A DNA stretch of 63,460 nucleotides, filler included. It is 8 parts of 8 records of this genome, joined end to end, with 100 filler letters (N's around TTAATTAATTAA, not from the genome) between each part and the next. Parts side by side here need not be neighbours in the genome. Positions count along the whole stretch, not along the records: positions 41,348 to 49,090 come from SRR7504441_3562; 7 more parts are not named here. One strand, 5' to 3'. The notes beneath the pieces were generated by a model, which saw only the letters and a program-made list of their open reading frames with translations, had not been told where the DNA came from and searched no databases. Position 1 is the stretch's first letter; every line of letters begins with the position of its first letter. This document shows, piece after piece, positions 24,520-60,311 of the stretch. The position numbers and the translations under genes are program-made.

Positions 24520-24619
24520 NNNNNNNNNNNNNNNNNNNNNNNNNNNNNNNNNNNNNNNNNNNNTTAATTAATTAANNNNNNNNNNNNNNNNNNNNNNNNN
24601 NNNNNNNNNNNNNNNNNNN
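24520..24619. other. Artificial contig spacer (N44-TTAATTAATTAA-N44)
   Basis: Six-frame stop linker flanked by Ns. Identical spacers lie at 30066-30165, 34611-34710, 41248-41347, 49091-49190, 56032-56131 and 60152-60251. Confidence 0.98.
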
Positions 24620-25177: not shown

Positions 25178-28100
25178 ATGGCCGAGGAGGCGGCGGGCCA
25201 GCAGTGCGGCCCGGGCCGGGGGGCTGCTGGCCGAGCCCGCCGCAGGTCGGTGGACGCCGAGCAGCGCTTCGTCCAGCTCGAGCGTTCCCTCCGGGCCGCC
25301 CAGCGGGTCAACCAGCAGTCCCAGGCCTCTGCCCGCCCCGCCCGCGGCTCAACCGTCGGCGCAGGCCAAGCTCGACGCGCTCTCCAGCACCAATGTGGAG
25401 CTCTCTGCCGCCGCCGAGGTCCCCCCCCCGCGCCCTCCCGCGCCAGCCTCGCGGATCAGGCGCACTCGCTGCGGTGCTCGGAGCTCGAGCGAACCGTGGC
25501 CGATAGAGACGAACGGCTGGCGCTGGCCGAGGCGAGCCGGGCGGAGAGCAAACGCAAGGAGACCGAGGCAGTGGAGTCGGCCGGCGCGGTGCAAGCTGAG
25601 AACCGCCGGATGGTGCCGCGGGCGGGCTGGGTGGGTCGAGCCTGGGCAGGCCGGCGAGTTAGAGAGAGCATCAGGAAGGGTCGAGGAGGCCCGGGGCAAG
25701 GCGAGCGAGCTGGAGAGCCAACTCGACCAGATCACCGCGGCCCAGCTTCCCAACAAGGCGCGTGCGACGGCTTGGCGGCCGGGCGAGCGCTGCACAGGTG
25801 AGTCTGGACAAGATGCAGCAGCAACTCGCTGTGCTCGAGGCGGACAACAAGCGGCTATCCAGCCAGGCAAGCCCTCGGGGGCGTGCCGGTTTGACCCCGC
25901 GTGCAGCTGGGGGAGGCTAACAGCACGCTAGCAAAGCTCAGAGCAGACGCGGCTCAGAGCAGCACGACTGCCAAGGCTGCGGCCGAACTGAGCGCCGCAG
26001 AGGCTGGTGCGGCCGGCCTGGGGCCGGCGGGCGAGCGTCGGGGGGCAGCCGCAGCCAAGGCGGAGCTGGAGAGCGCCCGCAGCGCACTGAGCACTAAACA
26101 GGAGGAGCTGGCGGCATCGCTTTCTCAGCTGAGGACAGAGCGCGAGCAGAGGGCCGAGGCGGACGGCACGAGGGACCGGGCTCTCGAGGCCCAGACGGAG
26201 GTGGCTGAGATGGCTCAGCAGGCCGTCCGGGATAAGGAGAGCAAGATGCAGGAGCTCCACTCGGCGATGCAGACTGCGTCGATTGAGCGCGATGAGGCTG
26301 CCGGCAAGCTGGCGCAGGCGGAGCAGACGCACAGGCAGGCCGCGGAGACGATGGAGGCCAAGCATAAGTCGGAGCTCGACTCGCTGAAGGCGATCATTGC
26401 AGCCCAGGACGGGAGCACTGGACAGTTGGTGGCTGTTGCTCCGAGCGACGCGCTGGTGCCTGTCGAAAGCACAGCGAGCGGGTTCATGCCTGCCGGCCAG
26501 TCGATGAGCGACCTGTGCTGCCAGCTGGCCGAGGCCCGGCAGGAGCTGCTCAAGGAGAAGAGCCGAAGCGCCCAGCTCGAGCAATCGATGAAGTTCATTC
26601 TGGAGGAGATTGAGGCCAAAGCGCCTGCGATTCAGCAGCAGCGGAACGACTTTGACAACTTGGTCCGGAGCCACTCGCAGCTGGCCAGCCGGCTGGCCGA
26701 GAACGTGGACGAGAAGGCGGCACACCGGGCTGAGCTGGCTGCGCTATCTTCAAAAGTGGAGGAATTGAGTAGCTTTAACACGGCGCTCGAGAAGCAGGCG
26801 GGTGCGATGGCGCAGCAGCTGCACGACTGGATCCGATCCAACGAGCAGCCCGGCGAGCCGCAGCAGCTGGCGCTCCAGCTGCAGAAGAGCAACATGGCGC
26901 TCACTAGTAAGACTGCGCAGCTGGAGGCTCAGCTGGCACAGCAGCAGGCGAACAGGAAGACTGAGGCAGACCAAGCCCTTAAAGCCAAACTGGGCGAGGC
27001 ATTTGCCATGGGCGAGGCGCTCAAGGCGGATATGGACACGATGCGCGCCGAGGCCACCCGGATAGTCGGTCAGCGCGATCTGTACAAGGTGCTGTTGCAG
27101 CACGCTGAATCGAGGAGCGGCGAGGGCGGCGAGTTGGCTGAGCCGAGCGCCGCGCTGGAGGAATCGACGGCGGTGACGGCGCTGCAGACCGAGTTGAGTC
27201 AGCTCAAGGCGAGCCGGGCCACCGCGCAAGGCAAGCTGCAGGACGCGCTTGACAAGGCCAGGGCCGATTGCACAGAGCTACGGATCAATCTGACCAAGAG
27301 TCAATCGCAGTCGGAGTTCAGGGAAGAGCGGCACGCCATGCTGCTCAAGAACACAGATGCGATGCGCTCCGAGCTGCAGGCGCTTCGGGGCAAAAACATG
27401 GAGCACACCGGACTGCTGATGGAGCAACAGGCTGAGGTGGCCAAGGCTCTCCAGCTGATTGAGACGGAGCGGGCCAAGACTGCGGAGGTGAGCCAGCAGC
27501 TGCAGCGCATGACTGCTCAGAAGCTGCGGGCCGAGCGGAACGAGGCGGCGCTGGAGGCGCAGATCGGGGCTCTTTCACAGGAGAAGACAAGGCAAGCTCG
27601 GCTGGTGAAGGATTTGGAGGCGATTTTCAAAGACTTTGAGAAGACATGCGCCCTGCAGAAGAAGCATTCGGCTGCGGAGCTGACCAGGGCGCAGGGCGAG
27701 CTGGCGGCGCTCGAGCAGCAGCTGGAAAAGGCCGGGCAGAGCTCGCAGGAGAGCGAGGATAGGCTGAGGCATAAGCTGAGTGAGGCGAGGGCTGGGCTGG
27801 ATTCAGCAGAGGCCAAGCTGGTGGCCGAGGGCAACCAGAAGGATCAGCTCAAGGCTCAATTGGCCGAGGCCCAGACTCAGCTAGCAGACGCGCAGGAGCA
27901 GCTGGGACAGGCCCAGGTGAAGCTAGCTGCCAGTGACACAACTGGCGAAGGCAGCGAGTCGCAGCTGGCAATCCGATTGGGCGCTGTACAGACAGAGTTG
28001 ACTTCAGCCCAGCAGTTGGTCAAGCTGCGTGAAGACGAGGTGAGCCAGCTCAAGAGCATCGCGTCAGCCAACGAGCAAGCGTTGCTCAAAGCCCAACAAG

Positions 28101-30065
28101 AGCACACCGCCGCCGCCAGCAGCGCAGCCACCGAGACTGCCACGCTCAAGAAGACAGGCGGCGAGCTGGAGAGCCAACTGGCAGGCGTCAAGTCGGAACT
28201 TGCAACCAAGCAGAACGAGTGCGACGGGCTGCGGCTGGAGCTCAAGGAGCAGGTGGAGAGTTTTGATGCCGAGATCGCGATGCTCAAGGCGACCGATACT
28301 AGCCTCAAGCAGACGGCTAGTCAGTGCGAGGAGGAGGCCGAGGCTGCGCGAGCCGCGATGCGCGCAGCTGAGCTCCGCCGGGACGAGGTCGAGTCCAAGT
28401 ACGAGCGTGAGGTGAACAACCACGCACTCAAGATCTCGGAGGCGAGCGCGCTGCAAACTAAGCTGGACAAGGCACAGTTGGCGGCCCAGCAGGCCCAGCA
28501 GAAGCTCAAGGAGAATGAGCTGAAGATGCAGGAGCAGCAGGCGGCCCAGGTCACTAGCGCGGCCGGCCAGGCACGCGAGGTGAGCGAGGCGACCACCCGA
28601 CTCAAGCAGCTTGAATCACACAACGAGCTGCTGCATGCGCAGCTGGACTCGCGGCTGGAGAGTCTGCAAAAGAGCCAGCCGGGTCAGCCACAGGATGAGC
28701 AGGACACGGCGATGCAACAGGTGCTCCGGTTTGTCAGAAAAGAGAAGGAGGTGGCAGTCGCTCGCCTGGAGCTGGCGCAGCAGGACGCCGCCAGGCTGCG
28801 GCTCAAGAACGAGTCGATCAGGAAGCAGCTGGAAGAGGCTGGCCAGCAGCTGCAGAAGGAGATGAGCAGGAGCGAGTCGCAGCGGCGGACCCAGGCTGAG
28901 CTGCAGGTGGTGATGCAGCACGTTGCTGAACTGAGTGAACTCCGAGAGAAGAATGGCCAGTTGCAGCGCAAAGTGGAGCAGTTGGAGCAGGCGGCGGCGA
29001 CCAACATGGCCCAGCAGTCGGCTGATGCAGCCAGCAAGCTTGAGCAAGCAGTGGAGACGTCCAAGCAGGAGGCGGTGGCCGCACAGGCTGCAGCCAAGGC
29101 CAAAGAAGAGGAGGTGCAGAAGTGGAAGGACAGGCTGCGGGGCGAGCTGCAGAAGAAGAAGCAACTCGAGACCGCAAAGCAGGCAGAAATAGCGGCACTG
29201 CAAGCCGAAATGAAGACCAAGACTGAGGCGGTGGCAGCGGCACAGGCACGCGTGGAAGCAGCCGGTGCAGAGCAGAAAGGGCTGCAGGAGCAGCTCGAGG
29301 CAAGCCAAGAGTCGGGTAAGGAGGCCGAGACTAAATTTGCAAAGGCTAGGGGCACACTGGGCAAGATGAAAGCGTCAATAGATCGACTCAAGAAGGAAGT
29401 AGAGGAGAAGGACAAGGAGCTGCAGAAGGCTCAGGGTGCTGCTGGTGCCGCCAGCTCGCCCGAAGTGACTAGCAAACTGGCCACAGTCGAAGGCGAGCTC
29501 GCCTCAGAGAAGCAGGCCAAGGAAGGGCTCCGAAAGCAGCATGCCCAGCTTGTGCAACAGCACGAACAGCTGAGCGCGCGGGTAGCCGAGGCTCGCACCA
29601 TGGCCCAGTCTGGCGCCCAGCTGGCCGAGGCTCTCGCCGCCCTTGCAGGTACCGTGCCCTGCCTGCGTGCCTGACCAAAGTGCAGGGACTCCACCCGCAG
29701 AGCCGGCCGCGGAGCCTGCCAGCGCGCCTGCCGAGCCTGCCGCAGCCCCGCCTACCCCTCCGACCGGGCGTGGGCCGTTCCTGGCTGGCATGACTGTTGC
29801 GGCCAACCAGCAGGTACCCAGCAGGCTGTGGGCTGTCTGAGTGTGTCCTAGTCTCAGCCGGAGTTCGGTGCAGCCAAGCAGCTGCCAGTGCCGCAACCGA
29901 CCGAGACCGCAAAGCGGAGTGGCGAACAGGAGCCAGAGGTGCTTTCTGGGCTGTGTTGTTGCAGATTGGCTGATTCTGCTGCAGGGGTCAGCGGCCAAGA
30001 AGCCCAGGACAATGGCGCCACCAGCCCCCAAGCCTGCAGCAGGCAAGGGTGCAGCAGCAGGCAAG
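25178..30065 (+). CDS. TPR: Nuclear basket nucleoporin TPR/Mlp1/NUA homolog, 3' truncated
   Basis: Long coiled coil with TPR-family motifs ILEEIEAKAPAIQQQRNDFD, IVGQRDLYKVLL, ESKYEREVNNHA and QVLRFVRKEKEVAVARLELAQ. Several ~40-nt introns at the 5' end and after 29648. Confidence 0.85.
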
Positions 30066-30228
30066 NNNNNNNNNNNNNNNNNNNNNNNNNNNNNNNNNNN
30101 NNNNNNNNNTTAATTAATTAANNNNNNNNNNNNNNNNNNNNNNNNNNNNNNNNNNNNNNNNNNNNCACTAAGTTTAGCAGTGAACGTTCGACCAAACAAA
30201 CCCAAACGGCAAAGCACTACGCTCGTGA

Positions 30229-34610: not shown

Positions 34611-34731
34611 NNNNNNNNNNNNNNNNNNNNNNNNNNNNNNNNNNNNNNNNNNNNTTAATTAATTAANNNNNNNNNNNNNNNNNNNNNNNNNNNNNNNNNN
34701 NNNNNNNNNNTTACCCCATGCAATGTTAGGG

Positions 34732-36771
34732 TTAGAACGGACGGCCATGCATGTGATATCCATACTCGTACATGTACATTGGAGGCGCAGGTGGAGGCGG
34801 CGGTGGAGGCGGCGGTGGAGGCATGGAAGGATTTCGGTCGTTGGGCTGGTATCGGTTATTCGGCTGATATCGGTCGTGAAACTGTGAGAGACTTGATGGT
34901 GCTTGCCAAGGTGGGTGATATGCGCTGTATCCTCCGTATTGGTACTGTGGAGCCGCCACGTTTGCCGGCTGTGACGACAGCGGTTGATGCCGCTTTGCAC
35001 TCGACTCGGCCCACTGCGACTGCTGTCGTTTCCGGAGGTTCTCTCGGGCAATCATTCGCTCTCTATCAGGGTGCACGTTTGAAATCGGCTCACCATACCA
35101 GGTTTTGCCGCAGTCTGCAGGTGCGGATGCACTCAAGATGTCGCGGGAACGAGCAGGGATCTCAGCTGCTGCCATGTCCTGTTGGCCTTCCTGTCGCCAA
35201 GCCCTGGCGAACGAACGGTCCGCAGTCACACAGCTCAGCTGGCCAGACCCGGTGGGGCTTGGCCCTAGCTCAAGTGATGGCATCGGCTCGGCCAGCCAGT
35301 CTCGAGTGCAGCGAGCGTGCTTGTCCAGGCTGGATATCTTGATCTTCAGCGCCTTCTCCATCGCCTCCCTCTCGCCCCGCGATGTGCACGACAGGAAGCA
35401 TCTTTTGATATACGCTTCCAGTGCCAACGGGTAGGACCCCGCGTTGCTGCAGGGCACTGGTGGCGCAGTGCTGCTCTCAGCACCAGCCTCACAGCTCTCT
35501 CGGGCCGCCGGCGCAGGCTCTCTGACCTCGGGCTCTTGATTTGCAGCCTGCCAGAAGCGGTCCGGGTTCCTGAGGGCGTTGACCACGTGCTGCGGGACCG
35601 CACCCACGTCCTGCGGGGTGGGGCACGAGTTTTCGGTTGGGTCGATCACCCTACCGTGACCATGGTCGACGTTCGGTTCCGGGCCATTCAAGCCTTTATG
35701 CTTGGCAATGAGGTGGTTCGCAAGATCCTGGTGCTTCTTGAATTTCCGGCCGGCCTTGCAGCCACCAACCCTGCTCCAAAGACACTCGCATCCATCCGAT
35801 TCCATTGCACTTCGCTGAGCCTCAACTAGTACTTTACTGGCTCTCCGTTGTTGGGTGAATTGCCGCCGTTCCTCAGCCCGGGCGCGCTGCTGCTCCCGAA
35901 CAAGCTGGCGCCTCTCCTCCTCGGCTGCCGCGGCCCTCAGCGAGTGAAGGATCCCGCGGACCTTGGTAGGCCCCAAGCCTTTCAGGCTTTCGAGCCCAGC
36001 CGCGAGCTGACTGGCCTCGAATGGCCGGAGCTTTCTGCGGGAAACGATGGCGTCGGCCACCGCAGGCCCGACGCCGTTGAGCGACTGTGTGAGCCAGCGC
36101 TGACTCATGGTGTTGAGCAGCTTTGCCTGGTGTAACAGGCAGACTTCTAGTGACGTCCCTGGCAGCGACTGATCCAGCCGGGCCTCTGGCAGCGATACCG
36201 GCGCCAGATCGGCCAGCCGGAGCCAGCCCTGCTCGGCTGTAGGCTGGGCCGGCTCCAGGATAACCAGCCCGTCATCGTCGCTGTCAGAATCCAAAACGAT
36301 TACGTCTGTCATCGATTGCCGCTCGTCAGTCGTCAGCCGGTACAGCGCGCCGTCCTTTAGACTGACCGAGAGCTCGCCCGGAGCAGCAGCCAGCAGCCGG
36401 AGTGTGAGCTCGCAGACTCGCACCCGGTCCGCCGGCAGCTGCTCGCTGCAGTTGGGGCAGAGGGCGGGCTCGCCGCGCGACGCGTGCTCGCGCCTGGTCA
36501 GCAGGTACGTGGAAAGCTCGAAGCAAGTCTGGTGCGCGCAGTCGGCGCCGCGGCAGGGCACCCGGAGTCGGGCGCGAGTGTACCGGTCTGTGAGTGCCAG
36601 GTCCTCCGATTCGACCTCGAGCTCCTCCTCTGACCCGGCCTCCCCGCGGGCCAAGAACGCTGCCAGCCCCTCGCCGAAACCCAGACGCGGTACGAGGGCC
36701 GTCGCGGAGTTGGGGCATCCAGCGCCCTTGTCCCCCGGGTTCTTGCGGGCAGCCTGCTTGGTCCGCGGCAT
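34732..36771 (-). CDS. SP-RING (zf-MIZ) SUMO-E3-like protein with H3-tail-like N-terminus, SIM, HhH, C2H2 finger and LENG8/Thp3-like motif
   Basis: MPRTKQAARKNPGDK; RLRVPCRGADCAHQTCFE...CPNC; DVIVLDSDSDDD; LNGVGPAVADAIVSRR and LKGLGPTK; CLWSRVGGC...HLIAKH; LEAYIKRCF...DWLAEPMP; Pro/Tyr-rich tail. Single long ORF. Confidence 0.75.
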   Translation of the reverse strand: MPRTKQAARKNPGDKGAGCPNSATALVPRLGFGEGLAAFLARGEAGSEEELEVESEDLALTDRYTRARLRVPCRGADCAHQTCFELSTYLLTRREHASRGEPALCPNCSEQLPADRVRVCELTLRLLAAAPGELSVSLKDGALYRLTTDERQSMTDVIVLDSDSDDDGLVILEPAQPTAEQGWLRLADLAPVSLPEARLDQSLPGTSLEVCLLHQAKLLNTMSQRWLTQSLNGVGPAVADAIVSRRKLRPFEASQLAAGLESLKGLGPTKVRGILHSLRAAAAEEERRQLVREQQRARAEERRQFTQQRRASKVLVEAQRSAMESDGCECLWSRVGGCKAGRKFKKHQDLANHLIAKHKGLNGPEPNVDHGHGRVIDPTENSCPTPQDVGAVPQHVVNALRNPDRFWQAANQEPEVREPAPAARESCEAGAESSTAPPVPCSNAGSYPLALEAYIKRCFLSCTSRGEREAMEKALKIKISSLDKHARCTRDWLAEPMPSLELGPSPTGSGQLSCVTADRSFARAWRQEGQQDMAAAEIPARSRDILSASAPADCGKTWYGEPISNVHPDRERMIARENLRKRQQSQWAESSAKRHQPLSSQPANVAAPQYQYGGYSAYHPPWQAPSSLSQFHDRYQPNNRYQPNDRNPSMPPPPPPPPPPPAPPMYMYEYGYHMHGRPF

Positions 36772-36831
36772 TAGAACCAAGGCGGCTACATACCCTGCTC
36801 CATTTGATAATTATAACGGAATTTCAGACAG

Positions 36832-41247: not shown

Positions 41248-41347
41248 NNNNNNNNNNNNNNNNNNNNNNNNNNNNNNNNNNNNNNNNNNNNTTAATTAAT
41301 TAANNNNNNNNNNNNNNNNNNNNNNNNNNNNNNNNNNNNNNNNNNNN

Positions 41348-43979
41348 ACGCCTGGATAGGCACCGCAGCTCTCTCGTCGTTGGCTATTGGAAACATGGCT
41401 GCTTGAGCTTGCACATCCCCTACCCTATCCCCTATGGCTGCTTGAGTTTGCATATCCCCTGCTGAGACAATCATTTGGCAGGCTGGCAACGCAAGCTGAG
41501 CCGTGCTGTTGCTGCCACTGAGTGAGGGCAAGCAGTCTGAAGTTAAAACATGCCGCCGCCTGGGGCGCGAGGCTTGAATGTTATCCAGAGGGCTCACCAT
41601 TGTGCCATCTTGTGCATCTGGCGTAGCTAGATTATCTGGAGACTGATAAGGGATCAGTTCGCAGTGCAGCACGCCTTCTGAACTCCTAGCTGTCTCCCTG
41701 GCAGCTTCGCGTCTCACGCGAGCAGGCAAGGTCTCGGACGCAAACAGTTGAATGTGCTTGAACCAGCCGAGCCGCGTCAGAACCCGCAGCACATTCGCGT
41801 CCACAGCGTAGTCGTTCCGCTTCATTTGATAGAGCATCAGACATGCAATGGTCTTGTCGCTGATGCCTGGGCTCTCGATCAGCCACGCTCGCACTTGATC
41901 ATCTGGCCAGTTGTTGAGCTGCTCGAGCGAGGTCTCTCCAAACTTGTCATGCGCCCGCTGGAGCAGCAGCATGATCCGCTTGGCCTTGTTGTGGAAGTAT
42001 GGCCCGTGACAAATGCACGTCTCCACGTCTTCCTGCCGGGCCTGGCGCATACGATTCCAATCAGGCTCGCCGGAGGCAGCGCCGCCAAAGCTGCTCAAAA
42101 GATTCGAATATCCAACAGAAGACCAGCTGTTCCGAGTGTTCTGGGCGCAAATCAGCCCGACCAGCGTCCCAAGGATCGAGGTCTTCCATTCCAGATTGAT
42201 GAAAGGGAAATCTCCGTACGGTGACTCGAGCTTGCTGGAAAGCTGCTCAAAGTGGTGCCAGAACGTCTGGTTGCTAATGGGCTTGACCAGGTCCCCATAG
42301 AACAGGTGAGGATTCACGCGTGGCCGTGGCTGAGAGGGCACGCGTTGCATCATCGCCGGGATCGACGGACAGCGCGGCATTGTTTGGAACGAGCCAGCTG
42401 GGTGGGCCGACCGTTGGCCTCCGGTCCGAGCAGGCTTGGGCTTGATCAAAAGCTGCTTGAGTTGGGCCTGCTCGTGGTCGTGCCGGACGCAGTAGGCGCA
42501 GACCACGTGCTGGGCGTCGCATTTGAGATGGCTGTGCGTGTTGCAGTGGTCGCACTGGATCCAGCTCTGGTCGCCAACATCCGGAGACCAGATCTCAAAA
42601 CAGACCTGGCACATGCGCTCGTCCAGAAACTCGCCGATCGATATGTCCAGCCCGGACACCTTGAGCGCCCTCAGCCAGCGCTTATCCCGCTTGAGCTGAG
42701 CGGCTGCCTGTGCGTACTTGGACCTGGCTGTGTCCAGCTGCTCAGCTGCCTCGCCCTGCACGAATGCCTTGGGCTCCACTGGGTCGGGCTGCGGCTCATC
42801 GGGGGATTGCGGCATCGGCAGCACACTAAACGGCAGGCCGGTCGCATTGAAATTCCGGCCCGGGGTGACGACGAACTTAGCCTTGCGGCCTTGCATCTCG
42901 ACCGCTATCTTGAGAGATCCGTCCGCCGCCCGCTCGACTGGATCCCCAATCTTCTCCCGGCGGCTGGCGCAGACCGGGCAGTCATCCAGCCGGTCCGGGT
43001 TCAGGCGCTGCCACTGCTCGGCGCAGTGCTGGTGCCTGTGTGTGTTGCAGTGCGGGCATTCTATCCAGAGCAAGTCGTACGCGTCCTTGTCGTGCGGCGA
43101 CCAGAGCTTGGAGCATACCTGGCACATGTTCTGCTCGATGAACTGGCCGACCGACTGGCTGGCGTCCACTCGGATCGCCTTGAGCGGCTCCCTGTCCAGC
43201 CTGAACTTGCCGATCCGTTCGCACTCGGCAACAAACTCCTTGGGGCTCTGCTCAATCTCTAGGTCATCGCGCACTATCACCACCGCCCCGCCCTGCTCGA
43301 TCCTGGCCCAGGCGTGCAGCTCGGCCTGCAGCGCCGCTATCCCGACCGTCACCTTGATCGTGCCCTGGCTGCTCCAGCTCCCGCCTTGAGGCTTGGCCTG
43401 TCGCTTCTTGGGTCTAGAGCTGGCCAGATCGGCCCCAAACGCCGCCTTGCGCTCGGCCTGCAGAGCCCACGGCCGCCCGGCGGCTCCGGCGGCGCTGCGC
43501 TTGGGCCGGCACAGCGCGGACTGCTGGCCGCCGGCTATCGGCGCCCCGAGGGCCGACTGCTTCCCTCCGGCCATCGGGATCTTGCCGGCCGCCGCGAGGG
43601 GCGGGTCGGCGCGCCGGCTCTTTCGGCCGGCCGGCGTCGGGTCGGGGGCCTTCCTCTTGGCCGGTGGGGCCGGGGCGCGGGGCGCGGGGTCTTGCGTATC
43701 TGGCGCGCAGGTGCACTGGTGGTCGGCCGGGACCACTCGCTGGCAGTCGAGGCATTTGATCTTGCCCGCTTTGGGCGTCGCCTGGACCTGCGGGCGCCCC
43801 CGTGCCGACTTGCCCGCCCGCGCGGCCGGGGTGCGGACCGGCGGGCTGCTGGCGCTCTTTTCAGTCACACTTGCTTCTCGGGTCCGGGGCGCGTCGGCAG
43901 CCCGTCGCCTGGTCACCCGGGGCGTGCAGGCCGACACTTCGGAGATGGCATCGCTTCGCGCTCGTCGAGCCCTCGGCAT
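41348..43979 (-). CDS. 2x PHD-like fingers + HhH-GPD DNA glycosylase (DEMETER/ROS1/EndoIII-like), 3' truncated
   Basis: TLVGLICAQNT, DWNRMRQA, KAKRI, SLEQL, SPGISDKTIACLML and VDANVLRVLTRLGW. C4HC3 fingers at 42969-43124 and 42489-42611. Met at 43979 is preferred because the upstream ATG overlaps PSMB7. Confidence 0.8.
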
Positions 43980-44103
43980 CTCGCGGGCCGCGCTCTGCGG
44001 TGGCAAGACCTCAGCAGAGGCGGTGGCGCCAAGCCGGTACCGATCCGTTGGAGGAGCAACGGAAAGCTGAGCTTCGAGTGTGTCAAGCTCGGGCTCTCCA
44101 GAG

Positions 44104-45313
44104 ATGGCCGCCGAGGAACTCGCAGGCATTCAGGGCGGTTTCAGCTTCGAGAACTACGCTAGGTGTCGCGCTGAGCTGAGCCCGGGCCCGGCGGGCTGAT
44201 CGATCTGCGGCAGGAACAACTTTATCCAGGAGCAGGGCGCCAAGATCCCCAAGTTCCGCAAAACAGGAACCACCATCGTCGGCGTCATCTACAAGGTGCC
44301 CCCCAGGCGCGACCGCCCGCGCTGACCGCTGTCCCCAGGATGGCGTCGTGCTTGGTGCCGACACCCGCGCTACCGGCGGTTCGACGGTCGGCGCCGAACC
44401 AGGCGGCGGGGCTTGAGGCCGCGGGCAGGTCTGCGATAAGAACTGCGAGAAGATTCACTACCTGGCGCCCAACATCTACTGCTGCGGGGCCGGCACCGCC
44501 GCCGACACCGAGAAGACCACAGGTGCCCGGGCGGCTGCTCGGGTTGCCAGCCGGGGTGCAGACATGATCAGCGGGCAACTCTACCTGCACAGGATGGCGA
44601 GCAACCGGCAGTCGCGGGTGACCACCGCCCGGAAGATGCTGAGCGAGATGCTCTTCCGGTCTGCCCCCGGCCGGCGCGGCTCTGAGTCTGGCCGCAGCTA
44701 CCAAGGCCACGTGAGTGCTGCGCTGGTCCTGGGGGGTGTCGACGTCAACGGGCCTCACATCCACACTGTGTACCCGCACGGAAGTACTGACGCACTGCCG
44801 TACGCGACGATGGGGTCGGGCTCGCTGGCCGCAATGTCAGTGTTCGAGGCGCGGTACAAGGACGACATGACGGTCCGCCTCTAGCGAGCTTGGGCGGCCT
44901 TGTGATCGATGGTTTCTTCAGAGGGACGAGGCGGTGCTTCTAGTCCGGGATGCGATCAGGGCGGGGATCTTCAACGATTTAGGTTCGGGTGGGAACGTTG
45001 ATGTTGTAGTCATCGCTAAGGTGACAGACCATTCAGCTGGCACTGACTGGTTGTGCGTACAACAGAACCAACCAGCAGAGATCCTGCGCAACTACGAGCC
45101 GCTGGACGTCGAGCCGGAAAGGCGACCAGTCAAGTTTGCTCCCGGCGCTACAGGTGCAGCCCTGGGGACAATACTCTAATTGGCTAGGCAAATGGCCTGC
45201 TATTGTGTCGCAAGACGCCTCGATCTAACAGTTTTGTGGCAGCGATACTCTCTGAAACTGTGGAGGTGTTTGAGGGATCGGTAGCCGATATCGGCGAGGG
45301 GATGGACATCTAG
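44104..45313 (+). CDS. PSMB7: 20S proteasome subunit beta type-2 (beta2/Pup1/PSMB7)
   Basis: Spliced GGFSFENY...[25 protein letters not shown]...DKNCEKIHY...[11 protein letters not shown]...[15 protein letters not shown]...[10 protein letters not shown]...[14 protein letters not shown]. Eight GT-AG introns. Confidence 0.95.
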
Positions 45314-45670
45314 ATTCCCACTCCAGGGCATGTATCGAAGGTAATTGTGTCTTCACACGACACAATAACCTTTTGTATGAATCGAATTAGTTCTGGTTTG
45401 TTCCACCTTGTAGTTATGAACTCGTACGAGTCATGTAAATCACTCTATCGAATCTATCACACATTTTGTGACCAAATAACGTGCAGTGCAGGATTTATAC
45501 GTACCAGATGTCACTTTAGTGAACATTTAGACAACAACGTGTAGACCTGTTTGATCATCGTGCATACTCGTACATACGTAAATCATCGAGTGCTTTTTTC
45601 TATCCTGTTCTATCGGTTCCTCTAGTTCTTCTATATATCCATTGGCACCATCTGTAGTGCTTTCTGGAGC

Positions 45671-48179
45671 TTATAGTGCCGATGCCCCATGCAGGTCTCT
45701 CCACCATGAGTGCTCGTTCGGATTCCATTTCCACTCTTTAAACTCATGCCCATTCAGCCAGTACCTGCAGCAGGCTTGGCAGCCATCCACATCCCCGATC
45801 ACCTGCTCACCACAGACGTCCGTTTGCGCTTGTCAGTCAGCTGGATCTCGTGTATCCACTCATACCTGCCCACAGCTCGATTGGGGCTTCTGGTGGTCGG
45901 ACCTGGCGTCTCCCATCAGCACATAGATATCGCCCGCTGCAAGGTGGATCCGGTGTGTATCCTGCGGCCTGCCCAGCGCTCAGTTGGTCTGATTCGGAGC
46001 GCGGCCGCTCACCCTGTCTGCGGGTTGCTCAGCACCAGGTCAGCGGCATCGAGCGAGGAGCTGATGATCAGCTGTGGGCTCGACCGTCAGTCTGCTCTAG
46101 ATAGCCCACTCACGTGGCCCAGGTTTGGTGGATCGAAGTGCGGCTCCAAGTTGGCCGAGTAGCTTACCACCATGTGGTGAAATACGACAGGCTCGCCCCC
46201 GGCCAGCATCGTGTGCCCTGGCCAACCGCTTACACTCGGACCCAACCAGCCAGATCACCGCCCACGCTGTCATGGCTCGGCGGCTCCAAGTTGTGCCCTC
46301 GTGCAAGCTTGCTCGTGTACTGAGAAGACTTGACAACAGCTCCCTGCAGCACAAGCTAATGCCGATCGGATCAGGTTTTGAGTGACCTCGCGATCTTCTC
46401 GCAGGTCCAGCATCGGCTGCAGGTACGGGAATATGCACTCGCGGATCACTTTCTCGAGAGATTTGGTCCACGAAGGGAACTGTGTGATCGAGGCCCGCTT
46501 GATCTCCGAGGGGCACTGCCAGCCAGGCCGGTGATGCGCGGATGGGATTGACTAACAGACCGCCGAGTGCTTGCAGATCTCTTCCGGAGCAAAGCAAACG
46601 CGGCATTGCGAGCTCTGGTTGGCCTGCTGCACGACTGCGTGCGAGTACTTGCCATTCACGACGTCCTGCACGTCGGCCAGGTCGGCTTGCATCGCCTCGA
46701 GCAGCGTGAGCCCCGACTCTGTCCGGTGCCTGCACTGGCTGGTTGATCAAGCCGGATGGTTGAGCGCACCTGGTGAGGATCTGCTGGAAGAGCATGAACC
46801 CGTCCACCATCTTCCACTCAGCCGGGTGCACCGCCTCGGCCCAGTGCAGCATCCGGCCGAAATTAACGTTGTTTGTCTGCAGTCTCCGCCGCTCTTGCCC
46901 ATTCTCGTGAGGAAGAGTGGTATCAGTTTCTTTCTTGGAGCTAGCAGCCGGCTCTGGCTTCTCGGAGATCAGGCACTCCCGCCCAGTGTCTGCTGCGACG
47001 GCCAACGCCTGCCAGCCCACAACTCAGCGCCTGATCAGACCGACACGCCGCCCTAGAGTCGACTAGCAGCCAATCACTCGCACGCGATAAGACACAGCCG
47101 GCTCTGCTCGCCTGGGTCAGCCTGGCGTTAACCCTAGCCGTGTGATGCAATCTGCCCTCGGCTGTCTGAAGTCGCAGGCGCAGCTCGGCACACTCCCGCT
47201 CAGTGGCCAATGCCCGTGCGCTATATTTTGGCATCTCGTGGGTCGCCGGCTTGGCGCCTGCACTATTTGGAGTCGTTGTCGCCGAAATCCCACCGCTGTG
47301 CTTTGGCTTTTTGTTGCCCTGGGCATGCTTTGGGGCGGCTCGTTTGGCACACTTCTTAGGCGCCGCGCGCTGGGCCGCGGCCGCCGCCTCGAGAGCCGTG
47401 AGTTTCTCTATCTGAGTCTGCACCTCCTCCTGGGCCATTTTGAGGGTCTTGTTGCGATCTGTCAGCACGACCAGCATCGAGGCGGGCTGCGACGGGTCCT
47501 CCAGGCACTGGACCACCTGTCCAGACCCAAACCAGACCGATCAGCACTCATTCCATCCGCGCAATTCTTAGGCGGGAGGGCAGCCGAGACAGCCCGGCTC
47601 GGCCGGAGGCGGGAGGGCTGGTTGCTCACCGCCTCGACGGCTGCGTTCCCGGGGATGTCGCATAGCAGACGCATCCCGACCAGCTTGAGCTGGCTGCTGC
47701 CCGAGAGCTCCGGCTCCTCGAACTGCGTGAGCTGCTTGATCAGGGCCTCGTCAGACTCGGCCCCGCCCGCCCCGATCTGGAACAGCTGGAGCAGCTCGTA
47801 GGTCAGCTTGTACGGCTTCCCGTACCCTCGGAAGTCCTCTGCAATTGCCAGCGGGCTTTTGGCGCTGGCGTTGAGGTCCTTTGGTCGCAGGCCGCTTCGG
47901 AGCAGCATCTCGGCCGCGTTGCGACAGCCGCGGCTGGCTGCGAAGTGGAGCAAGGTGTTGCCAGACTTGTCTTTCAGTTCAGTCAATGTGAAGCCATGCT
48001 CGCGAATAGCCTGCCCCAAACCAACCCGTGAGCTCCCAAGCGTCGGCAAGGCCGGTCCGAGAGCGGCCGCGCGCTGGGGGGGGGGTTCCCACCTGCAAAC
48101 ACGAAACAGCAGAAGCATCGCTGCGCCGGGTGCAGTACTTGAACGCCTCGAACAGATCATCCGCGTCAGCCTTCGCCAT
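45671..48179 (-). CDS. Ankyrin-repeat + AlkB-family 2OG-Fe(II) dioxygenase fusion, multi-exon
   Basis: Ankyrin repeat GNTLLHFAASRGCRNAAEMLL. The spliced C-terminus reads LEPHFDPP...IYVLMGDAR|YEWIHEI...KRTSVVSR|YWL, giving HxD...H...RxSxxxR. TAA at 45671-45673. Confidence 0.7.
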
Positions 48180-48904
48180 GATGGCACTCCGGGGTGCTAT
48201 CTCGTCTCCGCACAGGTCACGCGGCGGACGCGGGCCGGGCTGGTGCTCCCTCTCGCGAGGTCAGTCAACGTACGTACATTTCCTTTGCCTGATCATACAG
48301 GTTCGATGATGCAGTGCTCAGCCCGTGCCAGCGCGCCTGCGAGCCAGCGAGCTTACCATGTACAGAACCACCATACAACAACAAGCCTCGGGCGAGGAGT
48401 ATCCCCACTCCCAACATACTCCAGCCCTCCTCCGGATTGCCAAGTGCACCGGTACCCTCTTCGCTAGCGGCCTAGCGCTCTCTTGCCGCCTATTGTTTGT
48501 TCGCAACTTTGCTCGGAGGATTAGGAGCTTTTTTGCCGCCGGCCCGGGGCAAGCCTGGGTAGTGGGGTAGTCGCCCGGAACGCCCGTACTAGGTTGACCG
48601 CCTGACTGATTGGGCGGTACTAGGGCGGTACCTGCGGGGATGAATCGGATGATGCCTGGTGAATTCGAACCAGCCTCACTCGCTCAAGTCATTATTCAAA
48701 GCACAGGTATGCCGCCTCCCGCGCTCGGCTGATGGCCACCATAGTGCCCCGGCATCTCTGGCCCGCCTCCAGCCCCTGTTTAGACTGGTCGAGCCCCTCG
48801 CCCTGCCCGGGATCTTCCGGCGGCCCAGCCCTTGCCGGCCCCCGCTCCTCCGACTGCTGCCCGACCGCATAGGCTGACCGGCCCGGGCGTGCAGACACAT
48901 CGAG

Positions 48905-49090
48905 ATGCTGGAGGCTCGGATCGCGCAGGGCTCGCTGCTCAAGAAACTGATCGAGGCGGTCAAAGACCTCGTGACCGAGGCCAACTTTGACTGCAACGCC
49001 GAGGGGATCACCGTGCAGGCGATGGACTCGTCGCATGTGTCGCTGGTCGGCATCCAGATGAAGGCCGACGGGTTCGAGCACTACCGATGC
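48905..49090 (+). CDS. PCNA: Proliferating cell nuclear antigen, 5' part
   Basis: [30 protein letters not shown]...[11 protein letters not shown]...FEHYRC. Probable 5'UTR intron at 48707-48893. Confidence 0.95.
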
Positions 49091-49190
49091 NNNNNNNNNN
49101 NNNNNNNNNNNNNNNNNNNNNNNNNNNNNNNNNNTTAATTAATTAANNNNNNNNNNNNNNNNNNNNNNNNNNNNNNNNNNNNNNNNNNNN

Positions 49191-56031: not shown

Positions 56032-56206
56032 NNNNNNNNNNNNNNNNNNNNNNNNNNNNNNNNNNNNNNNNNNNNTTAATTAATTAANNNNNNNNNNNNN
56101 NNNNNNNNNNNNNNNNNNNNNNNNNNNNNNNCGAGGGTAAAGGCGGACATAGCTAGTCAGTAACCCTACTGCTACATGTACACGAGCTCCGAAATTTTAA
56201 ATATTT

Positions 56207-59200
56207 TTATGGTAAATCTTTGACCTTATTTTCAAACCAATCTATATCCAAGGGCTTGGTAGTGACTCCTTGCATTCCAGCTTTGAGGCAGACCGCCTCC
56301 GTGTCGGCGTCAACACTTGCAGTGAGCCCATAAATGGGCGTGATGTGCATGCGACTTTGCCTCGCCTCCCACGCCCTAAACTCAGTGACCACATCTGCAC
56401 CAGAAATTGCCCCCATATTGAAGTCGCATAAAACTAACTTATACTGGCACTGTTTCAGAGCCTTGAGCCCTAAAACACGGTACAACTCAGAATTAAAACA
56501 CAAGAATGAGCCACACCTTCCTCTGCCCCACAACCCTCATCCACTTTGAAACCTTCGGCACGAAGGAGCATTGCAGTCAACTTGAGCACAGTAAGGGTGT
56601 CGTCAATGATCAAGATGCGCTCGATTTTGCATGTCTCAGGTACTACCTCGGGTACTACCTCGGCTTCTGCCTTGGGTGTTGCATCGGTTTCTGTCTCGGC
56701 TTCAGTCTCGGATGCTGCCTCGGGTGCTGCCTCAACTTCTGCCTTGTGTGGATTGTGATGTGGTGCAACTGGTCCATCAGTGTGAGCTGGAATCAAGGGA
56801 AAGCTGAACCAAAAGACAGAACCAGGGCCGTTAGGATTATCATGCATCCCACACTGGCCACCAATAGATTCACACTGTGCCTTGACCACAAAGAGCCCAA
56901 GGCCAGAGCTCTGAGCATTCGACACAAACGGCTCCCATATCTTGGCTTGTTGACCTGGTGGCACGCCCTCTCCAGTGTCTGTGACTGAACATAGCACGAA
57001 TTGGTGGCGGTCCAAGGTCACAGTCAGGTCAATATTTCCATCAGATGTGTGCCTGCATGCATTGCTCAATAGATTAACAAGACTTCGTACAACAACACTT
57101 CGGTTGCACACGATTTGATCAGATTTCAACAGGCTATCGTCGACTTTAGATGACATGACTGTTGAAGGGGTGGCTGCGTGCGATGTGCATGCCAGTGCTT
57201 CGGAGGTTAGTTGTGCCAGAGATACCACGTCTTCACATCGCACTTTGACATCACCCTTGTCCAGGTACCGCGCTGCGAGCATCATCGTGTCCAGGAAATT
57301 GAATGCAACCTTCAGGGCCGAATCCATTTGGTCAAGTATTGAAGTGGATGGGAGCTGACGCTGAGAAACTAAGCTCCGTAAAACTGAGGACCCGCTCTTC
57401 AGTGCAGCAATAGGTGTCCTCAAATCATGCGCGGTTGAATAGACAACCTGATGATAGGCTGCAGCTTGTTTGCGTAAATCAGCAGCTCGCGCCGCGTGAA
57501 GCCCCACACTTTTGAGCAGTAAAACAGCTCCACCCAACAAGGTTGCTCCGCCAGAAATGAAGAGGTCGAAAGCCATGTTCGGGGAACAAAGTGTCACGAG
57601 AGCATTAAGGGAGAGCGTGACAGCCAGATATTCGGATGCTGATGTGCAGGCCGCCGCTGCAAAGAAAGGATTTCCAACGCAAACAGGAATAAACTCCATC
57701 TGAGCAATGTAGCCCAAAGCACCCAGAGCGGCACGGGACGGGAGGAGAAGGAAGCTTGCTAGCCGCACAAACATCATATAACCCTTGTAGCTTGGGGGCA
57801 TTAGCAGTAGCACCACAAAAAATGCGAATGGGATGGGCACAGTGCCCCAGTCGTCTCGCAGTATGCGGTAAATCACATTCGTTGGGAAGTACACGACTCC
57901 GCCCCACCACATTGCCAAAGTCGACAGTTGCTGATGATCAGACATAGCACTCGCTTGATGAACTCGACCAAGCTTAGCACCAGTCTGGGTGGATCTGATC
58001 AAACAGTAAGCAGAGCCAAGAACAAACATAGCCCCAAGCACCAGCCTTGCAGTGGCTTGATGCTCCTGCAATGTGCGCCAGAGCTCTCCAGGTCTCTGCC
58101 GTTCGTGAAGGATTAGTGCCAATGCTGCTACTGGGACCGAAGCGACCGTTAATGCTATGTAGAGCCCAGTTGAGTGCTGGGGCGCAGGCTGGCCATCCGG
58201 ATCTGGCTCAGACCGCTTGCATAGCCACACGCACTTGCTGACCATCGCGATTGCGCCGGCAAAGGTTGCTGAGACAGCAGTGATTGTTAAAAGATTACCT
58301 GCAGGGTTTGCGTGCGACCAGAACAGCACCACTGCGTTGAGCGAGAGCGTGACGGTCAGGTACTCCGATGCTGATGTGCAAACTGCTGCAGCAAAAACAG
58401 GACCCCCGATACAAGCAGGAATGAGGTCCACCTGAGACACATAGCCCAGCACACCTAGAGCAGTACGGCACGGGAGAAGAACCAGACTTGCTAGCCGCAG
58501 GAGCAAAACGTAAGTCTTGTAGCTCGGGCTTGTTATGAGCACAGCTATCCAAAATGCGACAGTGGCAGCAGCACCGATCCAGTCGCCTTGCAGTACGTGG
58601 TATGTGCTGCTCACTGGCAAGACAATCAGCGCCAGCCACCACACAACTGTAACAATAAACTGTTCGTGCCAGGCTTGGCGTTCTACCAGATGTGCCGCCG
58701 GGCCAGCCAGCGACTCCAGTACCATGTCTAGCAGCTGGAACCGGATGTTGCATACGAATATCACCAAGCCGACCGCGCACATACCGATGGAGTACGCAAT
58801 AGGCGACATCCGGGAGGGTCTGCGCCCATCCTTCTCTAGTGCCCGCAGCTGTCTGGTCACAGTCACGATTTTGGCATCAATCTGCGCACGCTGGAGCTCG
58901 AGATCGCGCAGCTGGGCCTCGAGCTGATCACTGGAGGGGCAGCTAGCCTCGAAGACCGATCGGTCCATCAGGGCTGCTTCGTCGTCAAAGCTGCCGGTCC
59001 CGGTTTGAACAGCCGACACCTCCAGTAAAATCTCGTGATCGGCCTGGATTCTTCGGACCATCCCACGCCAGTGCTCCAGGATTTGCTCGAGCTGCGGGTC
59101 ATCCGCAACTGCCGAGTGCTCCGTCTCTTCCTGGCGAGGCTTGAAGCCAACTGCGGCTACCACGACGATCCGCCCGGTCACGTTGCACGGCAAACCCGCC

Positions 59201-59754
59201 CTCGAACGATCAGGCGCCGCAAGGCACTCGTCCCGGCCGCCTGGCGCGCACCAGCGGAACCCTGGATCCAGCATCTGGACCGCTGGACGCACGTCGGTTC
59301 GGAGTCCAGCCCGCTCCAGCAGCTCCGGGTCCGTCTGTCTCATCAGCTTCTCCACGATCTGACCGGTCGTGTTGTGTGCGTGCTGTGACCTCCAGTGCGG
59401 CAGGTTCGCCTGGTTGCACCGGCCAGGCTGCGGTATCAGGCTCGCGGACCACCACCACCTGTCAGCGTACTCGCCCGTTCCAGGGGGCACCAGCTGCTTT
59501 AGCGCTTCGCAGGCGGCCCCCGGTTCGGCGGCTGGGTCCGGGGTAGCGAAGGTGATCTGCACTATCCCGCTCCTGTGAGTGCCCTGCCCAGCCGACGAGC
59601 CGAGCAGCTGATGGGTCGCCGAACCGGTGTACTCGTCCCCCTGCTGGCCGCCCGTGGCACGGCCCAGAACCGACAAGGCGCCCACACACAGCACCCACGA
59701 GCAGCAGCCCCTCCGAAGACCACCCATCGCACTTACCTGGCGGGCATTCACCAT
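56207..59754 (-). CDS. Multi-TM hybrid histidine kinase with receiver domain
   Basis: H-box HDLRTP, N-box NLLSNA, DTGEG and GLGL. Receiver IDD...LCDFNM...GLTA...TKP is split by an intron near 56470-56516. The start could be 59754 or 59727. Confidence 0.9.
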
Positions 59755-60106
59755 TGGAGGCAGCGACCTGAAGGTCCTGCAGCCATGATTTGTCCGGTAT
59801 TTGACGGATCCGTTGATTTGTAGTCCACACGTGTGGACTTGCCGATACTTGACTTACTTGTGGCCACAATCTGATTAACACTCCGCTATTTTGAGCAAAT
59901 CTAGGCCACGGATTTACTAGCAATATATCTTGATTATAAGGTCAGGTCACCCTTGATTATAGTATGATTATTGGGTCCGTTGGTTTAAAAATAAGATGGT
60001 CGGACCCGTCTATGGTCGGACTGAGTTCATTAATTTTATTCATTGAGACAATCATTCTACTGTACTAGTACGGTAGGTTTACATGACGGTAGATTGCTTC
60101 GATCGA

Positions 60107-60151: not shown

Positions 60152-60311
60152 NNNNNNNNNNNNNNNNNNNNNNNNNNNNNNNNNNNNNNNNNNNNTTAAT
60201 TAATTAANNNNNNNNNNNNNNNNNNNNNNNNNNNNNNNNNNNNNNNNNNNNAGGTCCAGCGCCGGGCCGGTGTCCCCACTCATCATCATCCACTCAAACG
60301 GCTGCACCGTC

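Follow-up and report, generated by a model that had tools for sequence, protein, structure and literature searches.

On the minus strand of one contig, the window (the whole stretch of DNA that was analysed, 63,460 nucleotides in eight contigs joined by N linkers) carries the front (5′) two-thirds of what is probably a nuclear gene from a eukaryotic marine alga, encoding a member of a DEMETER-like HhH-GPD clade that is sister to plant DME/ROS1, with fingers that would aim a putative enzyme of active demethylation at chromatin. ORF inspection showed the minus-strand frame 41346..44129 to be open over 928 codons. The extent given in the first-pass annotation, 41348..43979 on this strand, is accounted for at both ends: 43979 is Met51 of the frame and 41348 is the first base past an N44-TTAATTAATTAA-N44 linker. 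Because this linker directly adjoins, 5′ on the plus strand, the contig end at 41348 that had been noted is real; the frame is cut there, which deprives the gene of its 3′ part.

Table 1 Features of the gene fragment and its boundary, in positions of the window.
Feature	Position	Strand	Basis
Gene fragment, Met51 to contig end, 877 codons	41348..43979	-	open frame, Met51, adjoining linker
Assembly linker N44-TTAATTAATTAA-N44, ends the contig and truncates the gene	41248..41347	.	sequence inspection
N-terminal basic, Ala/Pro-rich region, residues 51-306, net charge +24	43212..43979	-	composition
RGRP motif	43791-43802	-	within N-terminal basic region
Small C-x2-C-x9-H-x-C-x-C motif	43707-43763	-	within N-terminal basic region
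Finger module 1, residues 312-392: pre-finger LKAIRV..SVGQFIEQNM, then C4HC3 finger	42954..43196	-	
Finger 1 ligands C336 C339 C358 C361 H366 C369 C384 C387	42969-43124	-	
Finger module 2, residues 482-553: pre-finger LRALKV..SIGEFLDERM, then C4HC3 finger	42471..42686	-	
Finger 2 ligands C507 C510 C526 C529 H534 C537 C544 C547	42489-42611	-	
First part of HhH-GPD domain, residues 608-814, through RLGWFKH and the clade's conserved extension	41688..42308	-	tblastn, PDB search, model
Helix motif LICAQNTRNSW	42123..42155	-	pairwise alignment and ungapped column alignment, 41 rows
Lys759 codon, hairpin PGISDKT, predicted Schiff-base nucleophile of a bifunctional glycosylase/lyase	41853..41855	-	aligned with ROS1 Lys
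Asp777 codon, VDANV, conserved catalytic Asp of the HhH-GPD motif	41799..41801	-	aligned with ROS1 Asp
Low-complexity tail past RLGWFKH, residues 793-927, without Fe-S motif	41349..41753	-	

The assignment to the DEMETER-like enzymes starts from the glycosylase domain, to which tblastn of ten relatives aligned with 46-54% identity. Its score against Pfam HhH-GPD is 22.5 bits, below the cut-off of 26.2, and a PDB sequence search returned Arabidopsis ROS1 as best match (E 5.2e-12), followed by Deinococcus EndoIII-1 (E 5e-8). An AF2 model of the domain (pLDDT 78.5 overall, above 90 over model residues ~50-170) retrieved 8a5f (3.3e-7) and 7yho (9.4e-7) via Foldseek, confirming the HhH-GPD fold at the level of the predicted structure. 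As first described, the catalytic residues are kept: Lys759 is invariant in a 49-row and in a 41-row alignment, the position of Asp777 is at least 90% conserved in the 49-row alignment (Asn in the 7yho entry), and the two are spaced by 18 residues, as are K120 and D138 in E. coli Nth. Q663-N664 align with ROS1 Q607-N608, which places Gln663 at the wedge position Q607, and Phe641 occupies the position of the pocket aromatic F589. The likeness to ROS1 that had been seen in the QN motif is thus real in the alignment but not specific, because most of the small relatives of EndoIII-1-like and fungal-like kind carry QN as well (41-row alignment). Two neighboring positions differ, with A662 and N667 where ROS1 has T606 and D611; within the clade, Asn fills the D611 column in 14/14 rows and Ala the T606 column in 13/14. 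Both residues are essential for ROS1 glycosylase activity according to a passage of PMC3045615. A third residue, Y1028, through which ROS1 prefers 5mC to T, falls in the missing part of the window gene; the relatives have Val there.

Phylogenetic placement comes from a careful tree (50 rows, 184 columns) that takes E. coli Nth as its root; a quick tree of 62 rows agrees with it. The window protein falls within a clade of nine (97/92), nested in a wider haptophyte-type clade of 15 rows (100/99). These 15 rows and nine plant and algal RRM_DME proteins together form a clade of 24 (98/92) that excludes EndoIII-1-like and fungal-like proteins, the haptophyte-type clade standing beside the DME clade of plants and green algae as its sister and not inside it. 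The comparison with DME/ROS1, Nth and fungal HhH-GPD proteins proposed at first reading accordingly comes out on the DEMETER side. Each of the two joined clades has a long stem (1.1 changes per column), so that from the tree alone long-branch attraction is possible. Domain content was compared across the relatives by Pfam scans. RRM_DME (PF15628) scores above its cut-off in P0004, P0008, P0013 and P0028, just under it in P0015 (33.3 vs 34.6) and weakly in P0012 and P0027, and is on record for 4/4 further relatives of P0015, whereas Perm-CXXC was not found in the clade by these scans. Reader domains of the relatives comprise zf-CXXC, zf-CW, PHD, FHA and PHD_NSD, and in some clade members they lie inside the catalytic domain (zf-CXXC in P0013, zf-CW in P0118). 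Within the domain, the ten closest database proteins share 46-54% identity with the window protein, and the two with organism names come from Emiliania huxleyi (P0004, EMIHUDRAFT_451890, 1609 aa) and Prymnesium parvum (P0008, AB1Y20_000123, 1552 aa), both Haptophyta and annotated as hypothetical or PHD-type domain-containing; by sequence identity, the closest named relatives of the window protein are haptophytes. A literature search on haptophytes and Emiliania found no paper on DME-like enzymes in haptophytes. Sequence comparison supports placing the enzyme with the DEMETER-like glycosylases and not with plain Nth.

The architecture of the domain differs from that of the DML family, in which a passage of PMC3045615 describes the glycosylase domain as discontinuous, with a long insert between the QN-helix segment and the HhH segment. 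In the window protein this site is closed, with 8 residues vs 41-284 in nine plant and algal proteins, and core relatives match across it as a single stretch. The distance from Asp to the Fe-S loop is 168-574 residues in six of the seven full-length clade relatives, compared with 64-68 in plant and algal DME and ~40-47 in small EndoIII-1-like and fungal-like proteins. All 927 residues, including 150 past Asp777, are free of an Fe-S spacing motif, in line with what had been noted up to the contig end. Owing to these 150 residues and the relatives' inserts after Asp, the domain is most likely split elsewhere than at the plant site; its earlier description as contiguous holds at the plant insertion site but not for the region behind the catalytic Asp, where the six relatives carry their large insert. 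We read the low-complexity tail (Table 1) as the likely start of the clade's insert between Asp and Fe-S loop. Past RLGWFKH, relatives match its pattern for ~25 residues and then diverge; since they run on in frame with the same pattern there, an intron right after RLGW was rejected. The four-Cys Fe-S loop is present in the seven full-length relatives and reads C-x5-C-x2-C-x5-C in the core clade, the C-x6-C spacing of the plant enzymes not being kept. By analogy, we infer that the missing 3′ part of the window gene would run through an insert one hundred to several hundred residues long and then encode the last helices of the domain, a four-Cys Fe-S loop and RRM_DME.

The first-pass annotation had proposed to recover this 3′ end with its Fe-S and RRM-DME parts, which were not found in the contigs of the window, in four public runs or in a metagenome scan. 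Neither tblastn of ten relatives against the six frames of the window (Fe-S loop or RRM_DME on the other seven contigs) nor a phmmer search of these frames with the C-terminal halves from 11 relatives revealed anything beyond the known part, and a metagenome contig scan with the last 328 residues gave 33 pattern matches, none of them confirmed. Contigs of the four public runs cover the stretch in pieces of 81-447 bases only, with no extension past 41348 and no joints. Near-identical pieces are present in marine metagenomes; because the word shares with the four runs are small (at most 0.15), we draw no conclusion on habitat or abundance beyond this. RNA-library contigs lie on 42255-42516, 43373-43523 and 43617-43767 with 95-99% identity and no splice joints, a weak hint of expression.

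Upstream of the glycosylase domain, the protein carries a duplicated cysteine-rich module. When the two units were aligned, 45% of the residues proved identical over 62 aa (E 6e-18); with more flanking sequence included, the figure was 42% over 67 aa (E 6e-17). This likeness is far beyond chance, and both units fit C-x2-C...C-x2-C-x4-H-x2-C...C-x2-C (residues 336-387 and 507-547), the ligand order and spacing of PHD fingers. The duplication into two homologous C4HC3 units with eight ligands each, as originally proposed, is borne out. A longer repeat unit, including GTIKVTV and GSLKIAV upstream of each finger, found no BLASTP support and was discarded. The last loop of finger 2 has 6 residues only, which is shorter than the usual PHD range. 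In an alignment of both units with six fingers from relatives, 8/8 ligands and one Trp are invariant. A profile of 12 fingers of relatives matched only this protein among 502 targets (E 3.1e-7), at residues 327-389 in finger 1 (i-E 1.1e-3) and 501-541 in finger 2 (i-E 3.6e-4). Seven proteins contributed to the profile, and Pfam PHD is passed by four of them (P0004, P0008, P0009, P0010) as well as by P0013; P0006 falls just short of it, and P0012 has no PHD listed.

The window fingers score below the gathering cut-off of Pfam PHD (PF00628, 24 bits), with 19.8 bits (E 8.4e-4) for finger 2 scanned alone and 11.7 bits within the whole protein, while finger 1 matches at E<=1 only. PHD is the best Pfam family for finger 2, and 8/8 aligned fingers match it at E<=1. 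Foldseek of an AF2 finger model (pLDDT 63) against the PDB gave no match at E<=1e-3, the top rows being mostly PHD fingers at E ~1-4, and a wide VIA-align search with the model found no significant match (one chain at Z 2.2). A query of the ESM Atlas with the finger region returned RING- and PHD-like leads only, all below 0.9 (best score 0.88), which we do not treat as evidence. The original naming as PHD fingers hence misses the Pfam cut-off and a fold match, but a PHD type is supported by the ligand pattern and by homology to the Pfam-positive PHD fingers at the same position in relatives. In a search of 1839 candidate proteins with lengths of 510-1624 aa, no other carrier of the module (residues 305-560) reached E<=0.01. 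The basic region that precedes the fingers matches no Pfam family at E<=0.01; its RGRP motif is presumably AT-hook-like.

In the mechanism that we propose, the basic N-terminal region and the fingers would hold the enzyme on chromatin, the fingers probably through binding of a histone tail. The catalytic domain would flip the base out with Gln663, cleave the glycosidic bond and nick the strand via a Schiff base at Lys759, and the gap would then be filled by ordinary base-excision repair. The most likely substrate is predicted to be 5-methylcytosine, which would amount to active demethylation. Confidence is lowest for this step, since two residues that ROS1 requires for glycosylase activity are replaced throughout the clade; 5mC excision by the clade is plausible but unproven. 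Of the enzyme initially suggested, base excision guided by chromatin marks fits the chromatin and CpG readers of the relatives, but demethylation is not read from an active site in which T606 and D611 are Ala662 and Asn667.

The protein might instead be a repair glycosylase of the EndoIII type tethered to chromatin, acting on oxidised or deaminated pyrimidines such as thymine glycol, 5-hydroxyuracil or T:G, with fingers that merely deliver it and with no role in demethylation. Its top Foldseek match is Deinococcus EndoIII-1, level with ROS1, its best NCBIfam model is that of the DR2438 (EndoIII-1) family (NF053634, 51 bits), and the residues that are essential in ROS1 or tune it to 5mC are changed, the third of them in the relatives. 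The EndoIII-1 model, however, scores far below its cut-off of 400, the tree joins the clade with DME and not with EndoIII-1-like proteins, RRM_DME is common only to the clade and DME, and the CXXC and CW partners point to CpG or methylation states; we consider such a repair enzyme unlikely.

Another reading, quite unlikely in our judgement, makes the haptophyte-type clade an old, separate DEMETER-like line with shifted chemistry or target. Four features set the clade apart: the Ala/Asn pair, Val for Tyr, the shortened Fe-S loop, and readers before or inside the catalytic domain. The base that its members remove might then not be 5mC but, for instance, a pyrimidine that is oxidised or hypermodified; alternatively, they might edit the nucleosome-linker methylation typical of these algae under the control of histone-tail reading. 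If this were true, the window gene would represent an early-branching member with a duplicated, very divergent finger module.

Loss of glycosylase activity through Ala662 and Asn667 would leave an AP lyase or only a DNA-binding and flipping module, serving as chromatin reader or scaffold. A passage of PMC3045615 reports that ROS1 T606L and D611V abolish glycosylase activity and keep AP lyase, and the replacements are fixed across the 14 clade members. Against this, Lys759, Asp777, Gln663 and the pocket Phe are under apparent constraint in the clade, Asn and Ala are less drastic replacements than the Val and Leu tried in ROS1, and small relatives outside the clade (P0150, P0078, P0116, P0072, P0059) likewise lack the Asp of the D611 position, which leaves an impaired protein only a slim chance. 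A plain endonuclease III (Nth) ortholog behind an unrelated Cys-rich region, or a dead gene fragment, is highly improbable despite the HhH-GPD fold with Lys and Asp and a gene that is incomplete in the assembly, given that the domain reaches 27 bits in the nth model TIGR01083 vs a cut-off of 211.7 and 300.2 for E. coli Nth in the same scan (the absence of its last quarter lowers this score and cannot explain the gap to the cut-off), that E. coli Nth is a distant outgroup in the tree, as the initial view of an enzyme other than Nth had it, and that the frame is open over its 928 codons with conserved catalytic residues and ends at an assembly boundary, with no stop codon.

For the reading that we prefer with moderate confidence, a DEMETER-like enzyme of an alga, the gain from the window alone is modest, as it holds one truncated, divergent member. 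With a distinct clade of haptophyte type, DNA demethylation by base excision would become a possibility in a wider range of organisms, and haptophytes are ecologically important. The clade further offers natural variants of ROS1 residues marked essential by mutagenesis and natural examples of reader domains wired directly to a catalytic core, both of which are relevant to the targeting of such enzymes to chromatin. Methylation in haptophytes is itself unusual: a passage of PMC9246332 describes that of E. huxleyi DNA as DNMT5-linked and confined to nucleosome linkers.

Among known systems, plant DEMETER/ROS1 (7yho, 7yhp, 7yhq) is both the best sequence match of solved structure and the sister clade. 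Common to both are HhH-GPD, the Lys nucleophile, the catalytic Asp, the Gln wedge, the F589-type Phe and a large protein with a basic N-terminal region, as well as, in full-length relatives, the Fe-S loop and a C-terminal RRM_DME. In contrast to the plant enzymes, the insert at the plant site is absent and the relatives' large insert follows Asp instead, T606 and D611 are replaced by Ala and Asn and, in relatives, Y1028 by Val, the clade's Fe-S loop is shorter, Perm-CXXC was not found in its Pfam scans, and PHD-type fingers are fused upstream. Deinococcus radiodurans EndoIII-1 (DR2438; 4unf, 8a5f) has the same fold and the top Foldseek score, and shares with other small HhH-GPD proteins and the window protein the SQNT/QN helix motif, Lys and Asp; it provides the best NCBIfam model for the domain, yet well short of the cut-off (51 vs 400). 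The small EndoIII-1-like and fungal-like proteins are single-domain, 200-450 aa, without RRM_DME or readers, and stand apart in the tree.

A section of Zhang et al. 2019 (PMC6717269, with reference to Iyer et al. 2011) describes DME homologs of chlorophyte and stramenopile algae that carry CXXC, Tudor, PHD, AT-hook and DnaJ domains, and treats the insert as ancestral for DME; PHD- and CXXC-fused algal homologs are, in this sense, already published. The window protein follows the same principle of joining readers of CpG or chromatin state to a DME-type catalytic core, and the green-algal-type P0066, P0088 and P0152 carry Tudor, HARE-HTH, zf-CW and DnaJ domains. Unlike these, the haptophyte-type clade is a separate branch without the supposedly ancestral insert, some of whose members have readers inside the catalytic domain. 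Closest to the window protein in layout are P0004 and P0008, 51% and 49% identical to it in the glycosylase part, with PHD fingers upstream of the same domain whose eight ligands and Trp align with those of the window fingers, and with Ala and Asn at the same two active-site positions. Their fingers carry one more C-x2-C pair upstream as well as a WVH motif, in place of which the window fingers read S(V/I)G and TH(R/S)H, and P0008 has a weak GNAT-like N-terminus that the window protein lacks. The window fingers are 38-45% identical to each other vs 24-33% to any of those in P0004 and P0008, and the window protein branches outside the group of eight that holds P0004 and P0008.

Seven N44-TTAATTAATTAA-N44 linkers separate the eight contigs of the window, so that neighbourhood arguments are valid only within one contig. 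The glycosylase gene lies on contig 41348-49090, where a minus-strand frame of 928 open codons (41346..44129) enters the N linker; the contig end thus truncates the gene, as the first-pass annotation had suspected. The upper bound set there, 43979, corresponds to Met51, a sensible start because a proteasome-subunit gene begins ~125 bases beyond it on the opposite strand, with its start read near 44104. Both genes stand head to head, and the ~125-base gap between their start codons suggests a shared bidirectional promoter. The basic N-terminal region of the encoded protein (P0001) has no match in Pfam. Searches of the metagenome contig collection and of the other contigs of the window did not recover the 3' part of the gene. 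Marine metagenome and RNA libraries contain near-identical short contigs, including pieces at 42255-42516, 43373-43523 and 43617-43767, and the library contigs matching the gene have no splice joints, a weak hint that the gene may be transcribed and the covered parts intron-free. Eukaryotic genes also occur on the other contigs (Ion_trans/EF-hand, zf-MIZ, TPR/MLP1 and FAM221). On contig 1, a chain of frames has the look of a single giant gene bearing Ion_trans (E 1.5e-44), EF-hand and Big_5 Ig-like domains; the G+C content there is ~49-50% versus 58-67% on most other contigs.

Features located in the window and in P0001
Feature	Position	Strand	Remarks
Very long open-frame chain	2199-21987	minus	contig 1; 3188, 723, 370, 1173, 748, 240, 247 aa
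TPR/MLP1-like frame	25895-29671	plus	
zf-MIZ/SP-RING frame	34735-36810	minus	31.4 bits, below cut-off
C-x2-C-x9-H-x-C-x-C motif, residues 123-141	43707-43763	minus	small motif, basic N-terminal region
RGRP motif, residues 110-113	43791-43802	minus	basic N-terminal region; resembles AT-hook core
C4HC3 pattern, unit 1	residues 336-387		
C4HC3 pattern, unit 2	residues 507-547		
Proteasome-subunit gene	44104-45200	plus	apparent introns; frame 44417-44884 (later exon) matches PF00227, E 3.4e-21
1127-aa protein with HATPase_c	56473-59853	minus	
FAM221 frame	62327-63241	plus	
Linkers	24520-24619, 30066-30165, 34611-34710, 41248-41347, 49091-49190, 56032-56131, 60152-60251		

Two finger modules, unit 1 (residues 312-392) and unit 2 (482-553), precede the glycosylase domain. 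An alignment of 62 residues at 45% identity (E 6e-18) bore out their proposed homology, and wider flanks did not lengthen the repeat. Both units display the stretch L(K/R)A(I/L)(R/K)V...S(V/I)G(Q/E)F(I/L)(E/D) followed by the C4HC3 pattern, and an alignment of the two units with six relatives' fingers shows no variation at the eight ligands or at the Trp of CxxCxxxW. A profile derived from 12 fingers of seven relatives matches only the window protein, once per unit (E 3.1e-7), among 502 targets (P0001 and 501 window frames). All eight aligned fingers match Pfam PHD at E<=1; when unit 2 is scanned by itself, PHD ranks first among families (E 8.4e-4), its 19.8 bits lying below the 24-bit cut-off. 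Structural support for a predicted PHD fold failed: with the AF2 model of the fingers (pLDDT 63), Foldseek yielded no match at E<=1e-3, most top rows being PHD fingers at E ~1-4, and VIA-align returned one chain (Z 2.2). The finger module was not found in other proteins of 510-1624 residues. Identity amounts to 38-45% between the units and to 24-33% between the units and relatives' fingers, and the pre-finger stretch occupies the place of a C-x2-C pair in relatives. We read both units as probable divergent PHD-type fingers, duplicated in the lineage of the window protein.

The HhH-GPD part scores 22.5 against Pfam, below the cut-off of 26.2. Its best match among solved structures is Arabidopsis ROS1 (E 5.2e-12), followed by Deinococcus EndoIII-1 (5e-8), and a model based on a 49-row alignment (pLDDT 78.5, core >90) has EndoIII-1 (3.3e-7) and ROS1 (9.4e-7) as top Foldseek matches. 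The catalytic Lys and Asp of ROS1 have Lys759 and Asp777 as their aligned counterparts, in line with the initial claim that both are kept; the two are spaced by 18 residues, which is also the spacing in E. coli Nth, and form the signature of a putative bifunctional glycosylase/lyase. A plain Nth ortholog, the alternative raised at first pass, is excluded by a score of 27 bits with the nth model versus a cut-off of 211.7, E. coli Nth scoring 300 alongside.

A word-indexed search gave 10 matches, the two with named organisms being the haptophytes Emiliania huxleyi and Prymnesium parvum; an exhaustive search gave 1332 at E<=1e-3, 157 at 1e-10 and 12 at 1e-30. Full-length close relatives carry a C-terminal RRM_DME, along with PHD, zf-CXXC, zf-CW, FHA and PHD_NSD, and weakly HMG or GNAT. 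Distant long matches are either plant-type DME proteins with Perm-CXXC and strong RRM_DME, or algal proteins with Tudor, HARE-HTH, zf-CW and DnaJ. For the 99 small matches, the best model is Deinococcus DR2438, and none of them reaches a cut-off. One distant match, P0132 (614 aa), is a fusion of HhH-GPD (E 3.8e-12) and C-5 cytosine DNA methylase (E 3.1e-56) domains, combining a base-excision module and a methyltransferase in one protein.

A careful tree (50 rows, 184 columns, rooted on E. coli Nth) was computed without P0006, P0118, P0132, P0074 and P0142, taking every third remaining small row (n=22). The window protein is sister to eight core haptophyte-type proteins (97/92) within a wider clade of 15 rows (100/99), which groups with nine plant/algal RRM_DME proteins (98/92); small and fungal-like proteins all fall outside. 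A quick tree of 62 rows gave identical groups. Both joined clades have long stems, and the RRM_DME common to them is independent support for their grouping. The gene belongs to a haptophyte-type DEMETER-like clade, of which it is a divergent member, truncated here and with PHD-type fingers fused to it.

Several features set this clade apart from plant DME. The domain had been described as contiguous, which holds at the plant insertion site, where 8 residues separate the QN-helix and HhH segments compared with 41-284 in nine plant/algal proteins, but most likely not after the catalytic Asp. Counted from this Asp, the first Fe-S Cys comes after 64-68 residues in 8/8 plant/algal proteins and after about 40-47 in five small proteins, whereas the distance reaches 168-574 in six of the seven full-length clade members (78 in the seventh, P0028). 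In P0013 (2164 aa), a zf-CXXC (1322-1366) sits inside the glycosylase domain, between Asp ~1181 and Fe-S Cys 1621; the distant P0118 (1649 aa) likewise has an internal zf-CW (800-845), between HhH-GPD (600-730) and Fe-S Cys 1087. As first reported, no Fe-S motif occurs in the 150 residues between Asp777 and the contig end; since, in addition, the first ~25 residues after RLGW match the clade's pattern, the contig end most likely falls within this insert. In the core clade, the Fe-S loop reads C-x5-C-x2-C-x5-C. The QN pair, initially termed ROS1-like, is present but also found in small relatives. ROS1 F589 and Q607 are kept, and Y1028 is Val in relatives. T606 and D611, essential for ROS1 glycosylase activity (PMC3045615), are replaced by Ala662 and Asn667, with Asn in 14/14 and Ala in 13/14 clade rows.

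The observed domain order, catalytic Lys and Asp and family placement frame a possible function. The basic region and fingers would tether the enzyme to chromatin, Gln663 would flip the base and Lys759 would perform Schiff-base lyase chemistry, the missing 3' part presumably encoding the Fe-S loop and RRM_DME. The weakest link is 5mC as putative substrate. It would be favoured by the sister relation to DME, by RRM_DME and by the CXXC and CW partners, and we count towards it the heavy DNMT5-linked methylation of Emiliania huxleyi DNA described in an excerpt of PMC9246332. The active-site residues changed relative to ROS1 leave room for a repair role instead of 5mC excision, and likewise for impaired base excision. 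The first-pass observation is confirmed and its interpretation supported in part.

Our search of the literature on haptophytes and Emiliania, with most subscription journals outside its coverage, found no paper on a DME-like enzyme, and PMC9861306 reports DML proteins as detected only in plants, green algae included. Extracts of PMC6717269 describe chlorophyte and stramenopile DME homologs carrying CXXC, Tudor, PHD, AT-hook and DnaJ domains and, citing Iyer et al. 2011, propose that methylation or chromatin state may regulate the algal homologs. The concept of reader-fused algal DME homologs is therefore already in print; new here are the particular features of the haptophyte-type clade and its divergent member in the window.
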